A DNA stretch of 64,000 nucleotides from Dehalococcoidia bacterium (GTDB lineage: Bacteria; Chloroflexota; Dehalococcoidia; Plut-88900). The translations under genes were made by a program, and so were the position numbers. Below are positions 9,811-52,300 of this stretch, piece by piece; position 1 is the stretch's first letter; every line of letters starts with the position of its first letter. A model generated the notes under the pieces. It worked only from the letters and a program-made list of their open reading frames with translations, did no database searches and had not been told where the DNA came from. The stretch is from positions 1,088,001-1,152,000 of the forward strand of contig CBDBLV010000005.1 of NCBI GenBank assembly GCA_965207225.1, written 5' to 3'.

Positions 9811-9930
9811 GGAACCCTCACCCCCTTTATCCCCCTCTCCCTTAGGGCCTTTAAAGGAGAGGGGGAAAGAAGAACAGAGGCAGAGGTTGGCGCTGAAGCG
9901 CCAACCTCTGCCTCTAGTTCAATACTGGGG
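9811..9930 (+). repeat. Composite double-hairpin cassette, copy a
   Basis: GGAACCCTCACCCCC..CCCCCTCTCC..GGAGAGGGGG..AGAGGC[hairpin]GCCTCTAGTT..TACTGGGG; other copies at 32282, 35807, 49953, partial at 11443. Confidence 0.9.
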
Positions 9931-10025
9931 AGAAGGGAGGGGATGACGCATAAGGAAGGGGCGAGGATGGATTCACGCCGTGGGCGCATCTTGCAGCCGG
10001 CTCGGGGGCGGGATGACGGAGGGGG

Positions 10026-11354
10026 TCAGGGAGGGGGGCGGCCCCGGGCGATGCGGGGTGGGGGGTCTTCGTCATGGGGTGACGGGTCGGTGGTATGCGG
10101 GCCATCCCACGCTCGTACTTCGAGGGTCTCAGCATGAGCGGCACCACCGACGGGGAGGGGATCACCCTCACCCCAACCCTCTCCCCTCAAGGGAGAGGGG
10201 GTAGGACTCCTTCCCTCGGCCCTACCGTCAGGGAGGGTATCGATGTGGGTGGCGTCCAGGGTACCCACAAGGGGCACCCCTACGGGGGAGGGGAGGGTGT
10301 CGGCGTCTTCATCGTCATCAGGGTCGGGGTCATAGTCGTCGTCTTCGTCGTCATCCTCTTCGAGGTCATCAAGGAAGTCCGGGGGGATGTAGGTCCCGGC
10401 GAACCTGCGCATGGCCTGTTCATCGGCTGGCCATTCATCTTCTTCCGGGGGCCAGGGCTCGTCGGGGTCGATGAGGCCGAAGCGCCAGCGGTTATGGATG
10501 GGGATGAGGTGTCTCCAGGGCCACCACCTGTCTCCGGGCCGGGCCATGCGGACGGGGATGAGGTCGCGGAAGTCGAGGTCACCCCTGTCTACGTTGTCCT
10601 GGAAGACCTTCTTGATGAGATTGTCGATTTGCTCTTCGTCGGTGAGCTGCTTGGGGGCCTTGGCCTGGGCCGAGTATGCCCGGATGATGAGTCGGAGGCA
10701 GCGGTTGATCTGGGTGTAGTCCAGGGGGCGCGTGCTCAAGAGGCGGTTGGTCAACGAGCGGAGGAGGGCGATTTCGCCTTCGATGTCCGGGCTGTCGGTG
10801 CACAGCCGGGGCAGGGAAGGAGAAGTGTGGGACAGGGAGCGGCGACGGTTGGGGCGTCGGCCCCTGGGCCTTCGGCCGCGCCCGACGGGGCGGGAAGTCT
10901 TCCGCGGCTTGCGGCCGCGGGCATCCGTGCCCTGGTAGGTAGCCCGGGCACGGGGACTCTTCCGCGGTGCAGCACCGCAGGCATCCGCTTCTACGCCCGG
11001 TAAGGCGGAGCGGGGGTTCTTCCGCGGCGCAATGCCGCAGGCATCCGCTTCTACGCCCGGTAAGGCGGAGCGGGGGTTCTTCCGCGGCGCAGTGCCGCAT
11101 GCATCCGCTTCTACGCCCGGGGAGGCGGAGCGGGGTCTCTTCCGCGGCTCAGTGCCGCAGGCATCCGTGCCCTGGCAGGCAGCCCGGGTACGGGGGTTCT
11201 TCCGCGGTCTGCGGCCGCGGGCATCCGCGAGGGGGTCGGGCTTGAGGAGACCAACCGCCTCTTGAGCAGGCGCCCCTTTTTGGGGGCGTCGGGGGCCCGG
11301 TTTGGCGGGCCCCCTGTTTGACAAGGTCTTGTTGTGATGTTTGGGTGTAGACAT
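10026..11354 (-). CDS. Hypothetical protein of dispersed element, copy 1 (20-aa repeats, EIALLR helical domain, acidic tail)
   Basis: Paralog of 48772-49857 with shared MSTPK start, EIALLRS..NRLLS.RPLD core, WWPWR.L and RIARGRPPP end. Confidence 0.65.
   Translation of the reverse strand: MSTPKHHNKTLSNRGPAKPGPRRPQKGAPAQEAVGLLKPDPLADARGRRPRKNPRTRAACQGTDACGTEPRKRPRSASPGVEADACGTAPRKNPRSALPGVEADACGIAPRKNPRSALPGVEADACGAAPRKSPRARATYQGTDARGRKPRKTSRPVGRGRRPRGRRPNRRRSLSHTSPSLPRLCTDSPDIEGEIALLRSLTNRLLSTRPLDYTQINRCLRLIIRAYSAQAKAPKQLTDEEQIDNLIKKVFQDNVDRGDLDFRDLIPVRMARPGDRWWPWRHLIPIHNRWRFGLIDPDEPWPPEEDEWPADEQAMRRFAGTYIPPDFLDDLEEDDDEDDDYDPDPDDDEDADTLPSPVGVPLVGTLDATHIDTLPDGRAEGRSPTPSPLRGEGWGEGDPLPVGGAAHAETLEVRAWDGPHTTDPSPHDEDPPPRIARGRPPP
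10251..10283 (-). repeat. GTAG-type REP palindrome inside ORF
   Basis: Minus strand GTAG-GGGTGCCC-CTTGT-GGGTACCC; identical copy at 48892-48924. Confidence 0.8.
10891..11227. repeat. 60-bp-period tandem array (six 37-nt conserved blocks, five 23-nt linkers)
   Basis: CGGGGGTTCTTCCGCGG-N7-CCGCRGGCATCCG-like blocks start at 10891, 10951, 11011, 11071, 11131 and 11191. Confidence 0.95.
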
Positions 11355-11368
11355 TAGGTCTGAACGTT

Positions 11369-11396
11369 AGTATAGAACGTATATGGCAGAAGTCAA
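11369..11396 (-). promoter_or_regulatory. Sigma70-like promoter TTGACT-N16-TATACT
   Basis: Same architecture as TTGACA-N16-TATACT at 49872-49899 ahead of the paralog. Confidence 0.7.
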
Positions 11397-11694
11397 GAGG
11401 CAAAGGGGGTGTTTTGGGGGGATTTTCCCCCCGGCCCCTCAAGGGAACCCTCTCCGCCTTGGGCCTCTAGTTCAGTACTGGGGGGAAGGCATCCCCTCCC
11501 GGCCGCCCCGGGAGTAATATGAGTCCCGCCCGCCCGCCCTGTTTTATTGACATATCAAAAATGCGTTGCATTTTTGATATGTCTTTGCCAAGGGGGGAGG
11601 AGGGTGGGAAGGGTGTGAGCAGCTATGGACGAGGTAGGTTGGGGGAGGGGCGTTTGAGATTCCTCGCGGGGCTTCGGAATGGGAAAGGGGTGAT

Positions 11695-12006
11695 GGTGAA
11701 TGCCGAGGTGGGTTTGGGGGACCTGCACCGAACCGCCCCAGATTCCTCACTGCCGTTCGGAATGACAGTGAGGGGCGTCGGCTGACGGTGGAGGTATGCG
11801 AGGGCTTGAAGATGCGTGGGCCACCCCCCGCTCATACTTCGACGGAGCTCAGCACGAGCGGCCCCACCCCACGCCGGGGATGGATTCCCGATCAGGGTCG
11901 GGAATGACGGAGATGGGGGGAGGGGGGGTGAATGGCGAGGTGGGTTGGGAGACCTGCACCGAACCGCCCCAGATTCCTCACTGCCGTTCGGAATGACAGT
12001 GAGGGG
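11695..12006 (+). repeat. About 80-bp direct repeat (11695-11775, 11927-12006) flanking family A and B palindromes
   Basis: GACCTGCACCGAACCGCCCCAGATTCCTCACTGCCGTTCGGAATGACAGTGAGGGG occurs twice. Confidence 0.9.
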
Positions 12007-35841: not shown

Positions 35842-35926
35842 GGCCATCAAGGGAGGGGGGGAAGAAAAAACAGAGGCATGCACCTGCGCCAAGGCGCAGG
35901 TGCATGCCTCTAGTTTGGTACTGGGG
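35807..35926 (+). repeat. Composite double-hairpin cassette, copy c
   Basis: Same flanks, different inner hairpin AGAGGCATGCACCTGCGCC-AA-GGCGCAGGTGCATGCCTCT. Confidence 0.9.
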
Positions 35927-48771: not shown

Positions 48772-49857
48772 TCAGGGCGGGGGGCGGCCCCGGGCGATGC
48801 GGGGTTTGGGTGAGGGGCTGGGAAAGGGGTAGGCCCAACCGGGCGACCGGCCGGTCGCCCCTACGGCGGAGGGGAGGGTATCGGCGTGGGCGGCGTCCAG
48901 GGTACCCACAAGGGGCACCCCTACAGGGGAGAGGGATGGACCCATTTCTTCGGGGGGCGGGGCGTCATCGTCCAGGTTGTGGTTGTAGGGCGGGTAGTCG
49001 GGGTGGGAGTCTTCATCATCGGGGTCTTGGTTGTCGGAATTGGAAGAAGAATCCGGGTCATCGGGGTCATAGTCATCGTCGTCGGGGTCATCATCGAAGG
49101 TGTCAGTGTCGTCAGAAAGATCATCATCGAGCGGGTTGCCGTAGTAGCGGGCCTCGGCCTCTTTCATGGCATCCATCATGGTGGAGTCCTCTTCATCGAT
49201 GAGGCCGTCCCGGCGTCGCTCATCTATGGACACCAGCTGTCTCCAGGGCCACCACTTCTCCCCGGGCCTGGCTGTGCGGACGGGGAGGAGGTCATAGTAG
49301 GAGGTATTGCCATCATCCACCTCCTTGTGGAAGAGCTTCTTGATGAGGGAGTCGACTTCCTGTTCGTCGGTGAGCTCTCTGGGAGCTTTGGCCTGGGCGG
49401 ACTGGGCCTGTATGAGGAGTCGCATGTAGCGGGAGATGTAGGTGTGGTCCAGGGGGCGCCTGCTCAAGAGGCGGTTGATCATGGAACGAAGGAGAGCAAT
49501 CTCCTGCTCGAAGCCCCGGCCCTCGGGGGCCAGACGCGGCAACGAGCCTTCGGCTTGGCCGGCATTACCGGACCCATCGCGGTTTTGCGGGTACGGTCTT
49601 CCGCGTCGACTGCGCTCCTGACGTGCAGGGGCGGGGGTGCGGGTCTTCTTCTGCGGTAGGTTGCCGCAGGCATCCGAGGTCGTGAGGATCGCGTCGGGGG
49701 ACGCCGGGCCTCGGGGGTTCTTCCGCGGCGCAGGGCCGCGGGCATCCGGGGCCAGGTCGGGCCCCGGGGGGAGATCAACCGCCTCTTGAGCGGGCGCCCC
49801 GTTGGAGGGGTGATGGAAGATTGACAGTAATTTGTTGTGAAGTTTGGGTGTAGACAT
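48772..49857 (-). CDS. Hypothetical protein of dispersed element, copy 2
   Basis: Paralog of 10026-11354 with two repeat units instead of six. Confidence 0.65.
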   Translation of the reverse strand: MSTPKLHNKLLSIFHHPSNGAPAQEAVDLPPGPDLAPDARGPAPRKNPRGPASPDAILTTSDACGNLPQKKTRTPAPARQERSRRGRPYPQNRDGSGNAGQAEGSLPRLAPEGRGFEQEIALLRSMINRLLSRRPLDHTYISRYMRLLIQAQSAQAKAPRELTDEQEVDSLIKKLFHKEVDDGNTSYYDLLPVRTARPGEKWWPWRQLVSIDERRRDGLIDEEDSTMMDAMKEAEARYYGNPLDDDLSDDTDTFDDDPDDDDYDPDDPDSSSNSDNQDPDDEDSHPDYPPYNHNLDDDAPPPEEMGPSLSPVGVPLVGTLDAAHADTLPSAVGATGRSPGWAYPFPSPSPKPRIARGRPPP

Positions 49858-49952
49858 TCGGTCTGAACGTTAGTATAGAACGTGCAGTGCAGTTGTCAAT
49901 AGGCAGAGGGGGCAGTTTTGGGGGAGTTTCCCCCAGGGCCCCGGGGGGGGGG

Positions 49953-50094
49953 GGAACCCTCACCCCCTTGGTCCCCCTCTCCCCCTCGAGGGACTCGAGG
50001 CAGGCTCTTAGGGCCTGTAAGGGAGAGGGGGAGAAAAAACAGAGGCAGGCGCATGTGCTATGCACATGCGCCTGCCTCTAGTTTGGTACTGGGG
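49953..50094 (+). repeat. Composite double-hairpin cassette, copy d
   Basis: Inner hairpin AGAGGCAGGCGCATGTGC-TAT-GCACATGCGCCTGCCTCT. Confidence 0.9.
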
Positions 50095-50719: not shown

Positions 50720-52300
50720 ATGGCCTACAAGGAGGTACTCAGAGTGGAGATAGAAGAAGTCATCCGGCGCTGGCAGGCTGGAGAGAGCCAGCGCCACATA
50801 GCGACTGGGACGGGCCTGTCCCGGAACACGGTGGTCAAATACATCTCCTCGGCGGAGAGGTTGGGGCTGTCCCGGGACGGACCGGGTCCCAGCGAGGAGC
50901 AGCTGAGCAAGCTGGCGGCCATCGGCCGTGCGGGACCGCGGCAGACCAAGATGCCCATAGAGGAGAGGCTGTCCCCCTGGGCCGACCAGATTCAGCAGTG
51001 GCTCATCGGGGACCGGCTGCAACTGACCCGCATCCGGGAGTTGCTCTTGGAGCGGGGCTGCGATGTGCCCTATTCGTCGTTACAGCGCTTCGTGGCCCGC
51101 CGCAACTGGCGAGGCCGCAGTCTTCGGACGGTGCGGATGGAGGAGAGTCCTCCGGGCGAGGTGGCGGAGCTGGACTTCGGTCGGCTGGGGCCGCTGGAGG
51201 ACCCGGAGACGGGACGCCGCCGGACGGTGTGGGCGCTGATCGTGGTGCTGGCCTACTCGCGGCACAGCTTCGTCTGGCCCACCCACGGGCAGAAGCTGGA
51301 GGACGTGGTCGCCGGACTGGAGGCGGCCTGGGCTTTCTTCGACGGCATACCCAAGTACCTGGTCATCGACAACTTCCCGGCGGCGGTGGCCGGGGCCGAC
51401 GCCCTGCACCCCAGGCTGACCAGGGGCTTCCTGGAGTACTCGCAGCGCCGGGGCTTCATCACCGACCCGGCCCGGGTGCGCCACCCCAGGGATAAGCCCA
51501 AGGTGGAGCGGGGAGTCCAGTACGTGAGAGAGCGCTTCTTCAAGGGAGCCTCCTTCAGGGACCTGCCTCACATGCGGAAGGAAGCGCTCCACTGGTGCCG
51601 TGAGGTGGCCGGACAGCGGGTGCACGGCACCACCAGGCGCAAGCCCGTGGAGGTCTTCGACACAGAGGAGCGCCAGACGTTGCTGCCCTGGGACGGCGAT
51701 CCCTACGAGGTTACCCGCTGGCGCAACGCCAAGGTGCAGCGCGACCACCACGTGACCTGCCAGCACGCCCTCTACTCGGTGCCGTCGGCCCTGTGCCCTC
51801 CGGGGCAGCAGGTGGAGATCGCGCTGGACAGCAAGCTGGTGCGCATCTACCACCGGGGCAAGCTGATCAAGGTCCATCCCCGTCAGCCCAGGGGCAAACG
51901 CTCCACCGACACCGACGACTACCCAAAGGAGTTCATCGCCTACACCCTGCGAGGGCCCGACAAGATCAAGCAGAGCGCGGCGGAGCTGGGAGAGGCGGTG
52001 GCCGCCTTCGCCGACCGGCTCTTCGAAGGCCCCACGCCTTGGGCCAAGGTGCGGCAGGGACACAAGCTGCTCCGCCTCGCCCAGCGCTACACCCCCGACC
52101 GGCTGAACGACGCCTGCCGCAAGGCCTTGGACGTGGACCTCATCGACGTGCACCGCGTCGAGCGCATCCTGGTTGAAGCCCTGGAGCAGCAGGATGCGCC
52201 GCCCCTTGCCGACCTCATACCGCCGGGGCGCTTCGCCAGGCCCGGCTCCGTCTTCGCCCTGGTCAACGGCCATCACCCAACCGAAGGAGTTACGCTATGA
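50720..52300 (+). CDS. istA: IS21 transposase
   Basis: N-terminal HTH, PGEVAELDFG, YSR, DN, P.DKPKVER, YSVP. Confidence 0.95.
   Translation: MAYKEVLRVEIEEVIRRWQAGESQRHIATGTGLSRNTVVKYISSAERLGLSRDGPGPSEEQLSKLAAIGRAGPRQTKMPIEERLSPWADQIQQWLIGDRLQLTRIRELLLERGCDVPYSSLQRFVARRNWRGRSLRTVRMEESPPGEVAELDFGRLGPLEDPETGRRRTVWALIVVLAYSRHSFVWPTHGQKLEDVVAGLEAAWAFFDGIPKYLVIDNFPAAVAGADALHPRLTRGFLEYSQRRGFITDPARVRHPRDKPKVERGVQYVRERFFKGASFRDLPHMRKEALHWCREVAGQRVHGTTRRKPVEVFDTEERQTLLPWDGDPYEVTRWRNAKVQRDHHVTCQHALYSVPSALCPPGQQVEIALDSKLVRIYHRGKLIKVHPRQPRGKRSTDTDDYPKEFIAYTLRGPDKIKQSAAELGEAVAAFADRLFEGPTPWAKVRQGHKLLRLAQRYTPDRLNDACRKALDVDLIDVHRVERILVEALEQQDAPPLADLIPPGRFARPGSVFALVNGHHPTEGVTL

Follow-up and report, generated by a model that had tools for sequence, protein, structure and literature searches.

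Within the coding sequence of a multi-copy gene of Dehalococcoidia, we observed an inverted repeat whose arms lie several hundred nucleotides apart, and a comparison of the gene copies shows that the complementarity of the arms is under purifying selection. Since the repeat is real and its complementarity is kept by selection, the most likely explanation is that the arms form a long-range helix in the gene's own mRNA. Judging from sequence comparison and predicted folding, we give a probability of about one half to the reading that this selected helix closes a folded domain in the sense mRNA and governs the fate of the message.

The inverted repeat lies in a protein-coding gene

We analysed a stretch of DNA of 64 kb, in the following termed the window. 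Five inverted repeats of at least 20 nt with partners at most 1 kb apart were found in the window. Three of these are local hairpins with loops of 0–3 nt, and the remaining two, which are the only long-range inverted repeats, belong to two copies of the same gene. The ORFs and arms of both copies are as follows.

10026..11354, minus strand: ORF of copy 1, 442 aa
11249..11276, minus strand: 5' arm of copy 1 (gene orientation), GGGGCGCCTGCTCAAGAGGCGGTTGGTC, which encodes G-A-P-A-Q-E-A-V-G
10725..10752, minus strand: 3' arm of copy 1 (gene orientation), which encodes T-N-R-L-L-S-x-R-P at the start of the conserved core domain
48772..49857, minus strand: ORF of copy 2 (B-type subfamily), 361 aa, with two hairpin units
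49773..49800, minus strand: 5' arm of copy 2, from the repeat search
49453..49480, minus strand: 3' arm of copy 2, from the repeat search

In both copies the arms are 28 nt long and complementary at 27 of 28 positions (96%), with 496 nt between them in copy 1 and 292 nt in copy 2. By our own arithmetic for 60% GC, a 27/28 match within 1 kb is expected by chance about 2e-7 times anywhere in 64 kb. A first-pass annotation of this DNA had reported the same pairing in two 'elements', together with inner arm ends that read GGTC/GACC in copy 1 and GATC/GATC in copy 2, and both observations were exactly reproduced. The elements themselves are copies of a minus-strand protein-coding gene. Both arms are coding and share the frame of a single minus-strand ORF, in which the 5' arm specifies the peptide GAPAQEAVG and the 3' arm the peptide TNRLLSxRP; the annotation had correctly read NRLLS.RP from the latter. 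The codons of the two arms face each other in an antiparallel register, so that, as read from the sequence, no base pair is synonymous on both sides. In the protein of copy 1, the conserved N-terminal peptide MSTPKxHNKxLS is followed by the peptide of the 5' arm and by Arg-rich repeats of 20 aa. The repeats lead into the conserved core EIALLRSLTNRLLSxRPLD...WWPWR, beyond which the protein has an acidic tail and, last, a tail that is read from REP-like DNA.

Directly upstream of both ORFs we detected a near-consensus promoter.

11369..11396, minus strand: promoter of copy 1, TTGACT, 16-nt spacer, TATACT, 10 of 12 consensus positions
49872..49899, minus strand: promoter of copy 2, TTGACA, 16-nt spacer, TATACT, 11 of 12 consensus positions

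The promoter of copy 1 is the sole promoter-like site in the region 9900–11700. Its end lies about 15 nt before the ATG, so that a leader of only about 8 nt would result. Together with the bases downstream of it, the −10 motif is confined to the 11 gene copies in this genome. The repeated unit reaches from about 85 nt upstream of the ATG through the end of one ORF, and no recombinase is encoded within it.

The gene family appears to be undescribed. No relative of the ORF was found in Pfam, PHROG, NCBIfam, PADLOC, PDB or Rfam; the sequence search of the PDB with the protein gave no match below E 0.1, and the four Rfam matches (E 0.12–0.92) are far under the gathering scores, with none on the helix or the array. 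When JGI metagenome contigs were scanned with the family profile, 0 of 124 pattern matches were confirmed, and no relative was thus found. A phage small terminase was considered but is not supported by sequence comparison: an Atlas score of 0.82 does not rise above noise, Pfam and PHROGs returned no terminase family for any of 62 members at E ≤1, tblastn against 50,697 phage records gave no match at E ≤1, the PDB gave none below E 0.1 and the protein search recovered nothing beyond the family itself.

The gene is gained and lost within one genus

The gene is restricted to one genus of Dehalococcoidia metagenome-assembled genomes, with 1 to about 14 copies per genome. Our copy set comprises 42 copies from nine genomes of this genus, including 11 from the genome of the window. 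The first-pass annotation had proposed collecting further copies and looking for arms that diverge or are lost; both arms are present in 41 of the 42 copies, and the exception is a 5'-truncated copy that has lost its whole 5' part. In 40 of 41 copies the ORF has retained its frame, and the arm spacing likewise equals 1 modulo 3 in 40 of 41. Including the arms, the span from arm to arm ranges from about 340 to 610 bp. When the arm motif was searched with at most one mismatch, all 22 matches in the genome fell inside the 11 gene copies.

At orthologous loci the gene is present in some genomes and absent from others (empty loci in G008 and G001), and comparison of the filled with the empty loci shows an indel of about 1.3–1.5 kb. 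As regards a possible transposon, these loci revealed no clean target duplication or terminal repeat, and the junctions are blurred by flanking REP-like repeats. Gain and loss at orthologous loci imply some mobility at the DNA level. Genomes that are closely related differ by gain and loss of this family, which has no known relatives. Furthermore, copies recombine with one another. In genome G005, about 7 of 12 copies are co-oriented with replication as judged from dnaA positions; the cumulative GC skew of contig C5 has no clean origin.

The complementarity of the arms is under selection

Both arms are more conserved than their coding function would suggest. In the 3' arm, the mean entropy at third codon positions is 0.12 bits (seven codons), whereas 35 codons of equal conservation beyond the arm have 0.70 bits (Mann–Whitney p=0.0018), and the only synonymous changes are from C to T, each of which keeps a G·U pair on the sense strand. 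In the 5' arm, none of 27 sites varies among eight ungapped A-type copies, compared to 22 of 78 sites in the adjoining N-terminal stretch.

When the arms of all copies are aligned as a helix, 93.7% of 1092 cells are paired. Four pairs have changed on both sides, a number that was reached by 2 of 500 shuffles, and slid controls gave 0–2 such pairs; the double-sided changes amount to 10 cells, which was reached by 0 of 500 shuffles. By our reading, three of the four pairs are truly compensatory, i.e. those at positions 14, 19 and 26. The change at position 26 follows the two subfamilies, whereas those at positions 14 and 19 are compensations in single copies. For two of the three, the G·U intermediate is present in sister copies: copy L076 of genome G004 has G·U where L081 has A-U, and the B-type copies L060–L063 and L066 have G·U where c6–c9 and L057–L059 have A-U. 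One mismatch is retained in nearly all copies, at position 8 in the A-type and at position 9 in the B-type. As variation in the arms is low, the covariation rests on three events, and their independence is weakened because copies recombine. The annotation had noticed that both arms changed together and had suggested a selected fold; covariation over the whole copy set, conservation of the arms beyond coding need and the chain of conserved hairpins between them (see below) agree with both statements. The arms thus offer a natural case of three simultaneous constraints, namely two overlapping peptide codes on opposite arms and the base pairing between them.

The similarity of the arms might also be a functionless relic of an inverted duplication, in which gene conversion or template switching keeps the arms alike and each arm is under a separate peptide constraint. 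Both arms are indeed translated in frame, both of their peptides are conserved, the codon register leaves each base pair with at least one non-synonymous partner, and the copies demonstrably recombine. However, 28 bp is at the lower length limit for homologous recombination, and an exchange between inverted arms should yield inversions, of which there are none in 41 copies. Moreover, conversion alone would permit the arms to drift jointly, yet both are frozen, including their synonymous sites, and the conserved hairpins around them argue for a structural role of the whole region. We thus consider a relic to be quite improbable.

Across all 82 arms, the 16 nt at the centre (GCTCAAGAGGCGGTTG) show almost no variation, a constancy beyond what pairing alone needs. 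This near-invariance could reflect sequence-specific recognition. Accordingly, the arms might act at the DNA level, either as recognition sites of a DNA-binding protein, possibly the basic and helical product of the gene itself that loops or marks its own gene, or as a single-stranded DNA fold in replication or transfer. In the former case, the gene would hold its own cis site within its coding sequence. Besides the invariant centre, this explanation is favoured by the occurrence of the motif in gene copies only, by the gain and loss at orthologous loci, and by the difference at position 26, since co-evolution with a protein predicts that it tracks the two subfamilies. However, neither the compensations seen in single copies (positions 14 and 19) nor the G·U intermediates would be expected of binding sites, and profile and PDB sequence searches place the protein in no recognisable DNA-binding family. 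Furthermore, to our knowledge, arms 300–580 bp apart do not extrude as a cruciform in duplex DNA. We regard action at the DNA level as unlikely; the wobble pairs and the enclosed hairpins, described next, also bear on it.

The enclosed region evolves like a structured nucleic acid

The first-pass annotation had described the stem as enclosing a hairpin array, and a repeat array was found between the arms of copy 1, next to a local hairpin that we term P0.

11271..11288, minus strand: local hairpin P0, CGCCCC, 6-nt loop, GGGGCG
10891..11227, minus strand: tandem array of 60-nt units, 20 codons per unit; every unit has two hairpins, the conserved H1 and the variable H2

The 3' strand of P0 coincides with the outermost 6 nt of the 5' arm, so P0 would compete or stack with the long-range helix. 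P0 is found in 41 of 41 copies with five differing stem sequences, as read by eye with register shifts between subfamilies; the other stems are CACCCC/GGGGTG, CCCGGC/GCCGGG, TCCCGA/TCGGGA and CCCCGAC/GTCGGGG. The array is translated as Arg-rich repeats (DACGxAPRKNPR...), and 39 of 42 genome matches to the hairpin unit lie within gene copies. Only 21% of sites are variable in the array compared to 42% in the core domain, with little bias towards a codon position. At pair 8/24 of H1, the 159 units contain 64 C-G, 79 U·G and 16 U-A pairs and no C·A. These comparisons show that the enclosed region evolves like a structured nucleic acid and not like ordinary coding sequence. For binding sites on DNA, it is unexplained that the structure of P0 and the enclosed hairpins is kept despite changes in sequence.

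In agreement with the helix in mRNA that we favour, folding predictions recover the pairing of the arms. The inner 20 bp have a predicted pairing probability of at least 0.5 in 41 of 41 copies (mean 0.92), and the predicted helix comprises 17–28 contiguous or near-contiguous pairs in all of these, i.e. at least about two helical turns. Folding had been proposed as a check of the repeat, and the helix is present in the predicted minimum-energy folds of both window copies; it is also the outermost helix in the RNAalifold prediction.

The antisense strand is predicted to fold at least as stably. Some one-sided changes break the pairing in the sense strand yet give G·U in the antisense strand, namely C·A at helix positions 9, 12 and 23 in many copies. 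The same applies to A·C in several H2 variants and to C·A at pair 13/19 of H1, which occurs in 30 units; both would be G·U only in the antisense strand. The wobble data thus do not clearly prefer one strand, which is compatible with the arms acting as DNA.

Inversion, excision and reverse transcription

The annotation had further suggested that the repeats bound an invertible or excisable segment. The geometry would fit recombination sites of an intragenic segment that inverts in phase variation, with inverton-like repeats that flank 290–550 bp inside a gene, and intragenic invertons have been described (10.1101/2023.03.11.532203). As in those invertons, the inverted repeats lie in coding sequence. 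However, the orientation is not polymorphic here: the enclosed segment has one orientation in 41 of 41 copies from nine assemblies. Inversion would also open no alternative frame: in both copies of the window, reading of the inverted form would terminate within the array, as the frames that cross the arms on the plus strand reach a stop codon at 11003 (about 85 codons, copy 1) and at 49659 (about 70 codons, copy 2). Neither a recombinase nor an invertase is encoded in the repeated unit. The annotation had also named a search for inversions as a check, and among contigs from four sequencing runs aligned to 10300–11700 no joint at the arms changes strand, which argues weakly against inversion as these contigs are short and drop rare variants. 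Since all 41 copies are co-oriented and inversion truncates the ORF, an inversion switch is very improbable. The same holds for the borders of an excisable segment, as inverted repeats do not give excision. In the contigs of the four runs, skips occur in the REP-rich upstream flank only. A dif- or Xer-like site was rejected for the 28-bp arms, in which no dif-type internal dyad was seen by eye and which are both coding.

Two arms around a structured segment downstream of a promoter also recall the a1/a2 arms of a retron, i.e. of a template RNA for reverse transcription, an analogy that the annotation had drawn. The likeness is in geometry alone. The unit consists of one ORF without a reverse transcriptase, and none of the 62 family members matches an RVT or any other Pfam profile. 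Furthermore, the arms and the enclosed segment are part of a translated ORF that has stayed in frame in nearly all copies, and Rfam returned no match beyond chance level. With no reverse transcriptase present, we give hardly any credence to a retron.

A possible role of the helix in the mRNA

We propose the following for the helix in sense mRNA. In the transcript of this multi-copy orphan gene, which has its own promoter and would have almost no leader, the arms would form an intramolecular helix of 22–28 bp. This helix would join codons at about 27–36 to the first codons of the conserved domain, 300–580 nt downstream, and so close a domain made of P0 and the array of 60-nt hairpin units, the whole of which is in frame and translated. 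The fold would act in RNA and not in single-stranded DNA, and P0, by competing, suggests two alternative states. A near-perfect duplex of such length is the kind of substrate that bacterial RNase III cuts, and the genome encodes a homologue of RNase III (rnc). As the duplex resembles an RNase III substrate and the first ribosome must unwind the helix, the helix may be a processing or stability site, or else a brake on the translation of a gene with many copies. We infer its role as an RNase III target, translation brake or scaffold from these features only. The annotation had stated that the fold could sequester its own coding region. This is literally true because one arm is the coding core; the start codon, in turn, lies outside the helix. 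We also rejected translation from an internal start, the NTG codon that immediately precedes the 3' arm, as the nearest Shine–Dalgarno-like motif lies more than 20 nt upstream and the codon is CTT in some copies.

If the helix controls the mRNA, it would represent a regulatory fold of a type new to bacteria, long-range and contained in one gene, and would help to explain how a multi-copy orphan gene is restrained. Whether the arms act in RNA or as protein recognition sites, the family lends itself to study, as it offers 42 natural variants and its arms are of a length that permits compensatory mutagenesis.

More speculatively, and with only a small chance of being correct, the array may be read twice: as an RNA scaffold of identical hairpins that is clamped by the 28-bp helix, and as Arg-rich repeats of 20 residues that bind the same hairpins. 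In this case, the protein would bind the message while being made from it and so form a self-encoded ribonucleoprotein. Together with its promoter, the gene would represent a new, selfish kind of 'coding structured-RNA cassette' that spreads among the REP-rich intergenic sites of these Dehalococcoidia.

Comparison with known systems

Pairing between distant segments of an mRNA controls translation or stability in the fbi elements of the hok type and in the fold-back inhibition of IS10. These structures hide the ribosome-binding region, whereas in our gene the two pairing segments are both read as codons, in frame, and leave the start codon free.

Rickettsia palindromic elements (RPE) and MITEs can be inserted in frame in ORFs, where their inverted repeat is translated and gives a predicted long stem in the transcript (PMC2229807). 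The repeat described here is alike in being in frame and in its predicted transcript stem. However, RPEs and MITEs measure 100–200 bp and are dispersed in many unrelated genes and intergenic sites, whereas our arms lie 300–580 nt apart around a tandem array, are confined to one gene family and include one arm that belongs to a conserved domain. The Correia repeat-enclosed elements (NEMIS) of Neisseria carry inverted repeats of about 24–26 bp that are co-transcribed with genes, and their duplex is bound and cleaved by RNase III, or protected, which alters the fate of the mRNA (PMC2649163; PMC2229807). Correia elements are small mobile units that lie mostly in untranslated regions. The duplex predicted here is long enough, with about two turns or more, and given this length and the rnc homologue it may be cleaved by RNase III.

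Lastly, the wider domain resembles large structured RNAs such as OLE, GOLLD and ROOL: it is driven by a promoter, extends over several hundred nucleotides with many helices and is conserved across copies. Those RNAs are non-coding, whereas the domain described here is translated as an in-frame ORF that is fused to a conserved protein domain.

The inverted repeat and its gene

The window carries two copies of an orphan gene, each with a near-consensus promoter directly upstream and a pair of complementary arms inside the reading frame.

10026-11354, minus strand: copy 1 ORF, 442 aa
11396-11369, minus strand: copy 1 promoter, TTGACT-16-TATACT
10725-10752 and 11249-11276: copy 1 arms, 28 nt, 27/28 complementary, 496 nt apart
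48772-49857, minus strand: copy 2 ORF, 361 aa
49899-49872, minus strand: copy 2 promoter, TTGACA-16-TATACT
49453-49480 and 49773-49800: copy 2 arms, 27/28 complementary, 292 nt apart

An inverted-repeat search of the window reproduced exactly the arm coordinates and complementarity that the first-pass annotation had reported for both copies. Window-wide, just five inverted repeats of at least 20 nt have partners within 1 kb, the remaining three being local hairpins with loop lengths of 0-3 nt. By our own arithmetic, the chance expectation of one 27/28 arm match is about 2e-7. In gene orientation, the upstream (5') arm encodes G-A-P-A-Q-E-A-V-G. The downstream (3') arm encodes T-N-R-L-L-S-x-R-P, the beginning of the sole well conserved protein block (the core), as expected from the earlier reading that one arm codes for NRLLS.RP of a conserved domain. 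The arms share one frame and face each other codon against codon in antiparallel register. Since each promoter ends about 15 nt before the ATG, both copies would be expected to produce a nearly leaderless message.

Identity between the two proteins is about 65% in the core and far lower elsewhere. Neither has a family match in Pfam, PHROGs, NCBIfam or PADLOC, and no family was found when 62 aligned relatives were each scanned against Pfam and PHROGs. A profile search of PDB sequences with the family gave nothing below E 0.1, and comparison of the family DNA with Rfam gave no meaningful match. A small-terminase origin was not reproduced: the Atlas score for T5 small terminase clusters, 0.82, does not rise above noise, and Pfam, PHROGs, PDB sequences, a tblastn search against 50,697 phage records and a longer-protein search lend it no support.

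The genome of the window (4.03 Mb, 5 contigs) contains 11 gene copies. The family is present in 8/8 other genomes of the genus, whereas 32 genomes of other genera yielded just two matches, both weak and partial. In the protein universe searched, we found 134 close matches (22 representatives at 50% identity), none with a name. A literature search under some of the possible names returned comparison systems and nothing on this family, which appears to be undescribed. The following analyses use 42 copies, of which the own genome supplied 11 and its relatives 31.

Selection on arm complementarity

Both arms occur in 41 of the 42 copies. The first-pass annotation had named, as evidence against its proposal, copies losing the upstream arm with no other change; the sole arm-lacking copy (L065, in the relative G005) has lost promoter, start, upstream arm and first hairpins together.

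Third positions of the downstream arm are nearly frozen. Mean third-position entropy is 0.12 bits for its seven well conserved degenerate codons (41 copies), compared to 0.70 bits for 35 equally conserved codons outside the arm (Mann-Whitney, one-sided p=0.0018). Synonymous variants are limited to CGC to CGT (two codons) and AAC to AAT, C-to-T changes that preserve pairing as G·U in the sense strand. Across eight copies with a gap-free alignment, the upstream arm varies at 0/27 sites and the adjoining N-terminal stretch at 22/78. With the codons in antiparallel register, each synonymous site of one arm faces a first-codon position of the other, and selection on pairing would predict that such sites are frozen, as observed. 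We consider it quite unlikely that the repeat is a functionless relic whose arms are kept alike by conversion and double coding constraint, as this would leave unexplained both the frozen synonymous sites and the absence of inverted copies.

Covariation was assessed in an alignment of the inter-arm regions of 41 copies, where 93.7% of 1092 cells hold standard pairs. Changes on both sides affect four pairs (reached by 2/500 shuffles) and ten cells (reached by 0/500), with the limit that related sequences can beat shuffles even without structure. Sliding the partners by 1-3 columns gave 0-2 such pairs. One of the four, a U-G pair in the divergent outer part, was discounted. The others are position 26, where the G-C to A-U compensation proposed earlier for the inner end was recovered in 7 distinct rows, position 19 (one copy in the relative G004) and position 14 (one copy in G001). 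For two of these three compensations, the core-domain tree places a G·U intermediate in sister copies, the path that compensation in the sense strand would be expected to take. Variant 5' ends are scattered over the same tree, so copies exchange segments. Because copies recombine and related sequences can beat shuffles, we read the covariation as three events and not as strong statistics.

The helix is also imperfect. One mismatch persists in nearly all copies, located at position 8 in A-type genes and at position 9 in B-type genes (the two subfamilies; copy 2 is B-type), and a further C·A, at position 23, occurs in six copies. Four copies have the outer third of the upstream arm replaced, which leaves 17-19 pairs, and in four the inner end has diverged. 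Taken from two copies to 41, the observation supports the earlier proposal of a selected fold.

Two further readings from that annotation did not hold. An inversion switch is very unlikely, as all 41/41 copies have the same orientation and the inverted frame runs into stops. A retron, suggested by analogy to paired retron arms, is less likely still: the gene comes without a reverse transcriptase and the arms lie in the coding frame.

The enclosed hairpin domain

As proposed before, the stem surrounds a hairpin array; the enclosed segment consists of successive hairpins. A local hairpin (P0) directly precedes the upstream arm and shares the arm's first 4-7 nt; it is present in 41/41 copies, and its stem occurs in five or more different sequences. 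Its GGGGCG has two possible partners, a nearby CGCCCC and the CGCCCC in the distant arm. Four copies with a variant 5' end (L060, L064, L066 and L067), in which N-terminal codons differ and the outer third of the arm is replaced, have the P0 stem CCCGGC/GCCGGG or TCCCGA/TCGGGA.

The array consists of 60-nt units (20 codons), two in B-type and up to about eight in A-type genes. Each unit contains a conserved hairpin (H1) and a variable one (H2). Of 159 units, many of which descend from one another, 64 have C-G at H1 pair 8/24, 79 have U·G, 16 have U-A and none has C·A. H2 comes in three or four unrelated sequence types, all of which fold. In array and linker, 21% of sites vary, with only a slight bias among codon positions 1/2/3 (26/37/41 variable sites of 163), whereas in the core 42% vary with the usual third-position excess (51/39/74). 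Nevertheless the frame is kept: arm spacing is 1 mod 3 in 40/41 copies, including spacing differences of 3, 6, 15 and 24 nt, none of them a multiple of the unit length. The ORF is intact in 40/41, and 40/41 have a Met in the conserved N-terminal motif. This structure-like variation within a kept frame indicates that the region evolves as a structured nucleic acid obliged to remain translatable. Copy L070 (G005:C1:413644-418185) has an extra segment of about 65 nt right after the upstream arm (alignment A1 columns 53-120), which shifts the frame and cuts the ORF to 52 codons; its arm spacing of 582 is the sole one that is not 1 mod 3.

In thermodynamic folding, a check suggested in the first pass, the minimum-energy structure of both window copies contains the long-range helix. 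The inner 20 pairs have a predicted mean probability of 0.92, and of at least 0.5 in 41/41 copies. The RNAalifold consensus recovers the helix as the outermost one.

Sense transcript or DNA

The strand evidence is mixed, and we thus put the probability that the helix acts in the sense transcript at about 0.5. Several observations point to sense RNA: the promoter directly upstream, the G·U intermediates on the sense strand, the restriction of downstream-arm changes to C-to-T, the 79 U·G against 0 C·A at H1 pair 8/24, and U·G variants in P0. Other observations stand in the way of a firm verdict: C·A mismatches of the sense strand, which equal G·U on the antisense strand, occur at helix positions 9, 12 and 23, in several H2 variants and beside the H1 loop, and the antisense strand, which is G-rich, is at least as stable when folded as the sense strand. 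A rough count of single changes in the helix gives about 11-12 that keep sense pairing and 6-7 that keep antisense pairing, a difference that is not significant. Sequence alone cannot tell single-stranded DNA from RNA. The arms could instead be DNA-level recognition sites or form a single-stranded DNA fold; the near-invariant central 16 nt and the unsettled strand would suit this, whereas compensations in single copies and the structure-preserving changes in P0 and H2 do not fit, and we regard it as unlikely.

Possible roles and known parallels

A near-perfect duplex of 22-28 bp is a textbook substrate of bacterial RNase III, and the own genome encodes an RNase III homologue. If the helix forms in the sense transcript, the first ribosome would load on the unstructured, CA-rich 5' end and would have to melt it, while P0 would provide an alternative state. 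The simplest roles would be a site that governs processing or stability, or a translational brake.

The closest parallels described are Correia elements, which are RNase III-sensitive inverted repeats (PMC2649163; PMC2229807), and the in-frame protein-coding palindromes of Rickettsia (PMC2229807). Unlike these elements, the present repeat is confined to one gene family, with 22/22 arm motifs of the own genome lying within the 11 gene copies. It is also much larger, encloses a tandem array and uses codons of a conserved domain as one arm. The helix may be viewed as a variant of in-frame coding palindromes and long-range mRNA helices, with a putative mechanism.

Gene gain and loss and neighbouring repeats

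Within one subfamily, the conserved unit begins about 85 nt before the ATG, ends with the acidic tail and does not include a second gene. At the copy 1 locus, the gene is present in two relatives (G005 and G007) and absent, with flanks preserved, in six others. Judging from these filled and empty loci, gain or loss of the gene involves a single block of about 1.3-1.5 kb. Their comparison revealed no clean target duplication, and the junctions are blurred by REP-like repeats on either side. The C-terminal tail of the ORF is partly read from a REP-like repeat that also occurs at the empty site. Such units (GGGTACCCACAAGGGGCACCCCTACGGGG type, plus a GEGWGEG-type palindrome) occur at 10160-10300 and at L093, the empty site of G008; they flank the gene and are read through as the C-terminal tail, and one sits at the truncation point of L065.

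Two identical copies in the own genome (G000:C5:805108-806286, plus strand, and 940572-941750, minus strand) lie about 134 kb apart in opposite orientation, which may reflect a large inverted duplication or an assembly effect. This 4.03 Mb genome has 8.3% contamination, and its relatives measure 2.9-3.7 Mb. In another copy (c5, G000:C5:1272911 region), ACG replaces the otherwise conserved ATG start and the remaining 469-codon frame is intact.

Adjoining copy 2, a 526-aa plus-strand ORF (50720-52300) resembles an IS21-type transposase by eye, and many AAA-type partial matches elsewhere in the genome may represent its helper gene. Near-perfect palindromes of 23-24 bp at 35867-35916 and 50036-50084 have common ends (AAAACAGAGGCA...TGCCTCTAGTTT) and different middles; the latter, which lies upstream of the copy 2 promoter, is scored as a minus-strand terminator-like hairpin of 19 bp. 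Upstream of copy 1 (about 11547-11583) lies another, AT-rich perfect hairpin that differs from these palindromes. Just downstream of copy 1, 9811-9945 is a dispersed repeat of about 130 bp, with dozens of further occurrences (about 85-94% identity) in the own genome and in every one of the 8 relatives from the genus; more than 60 of the matches listed cover query positions 1112-1246.
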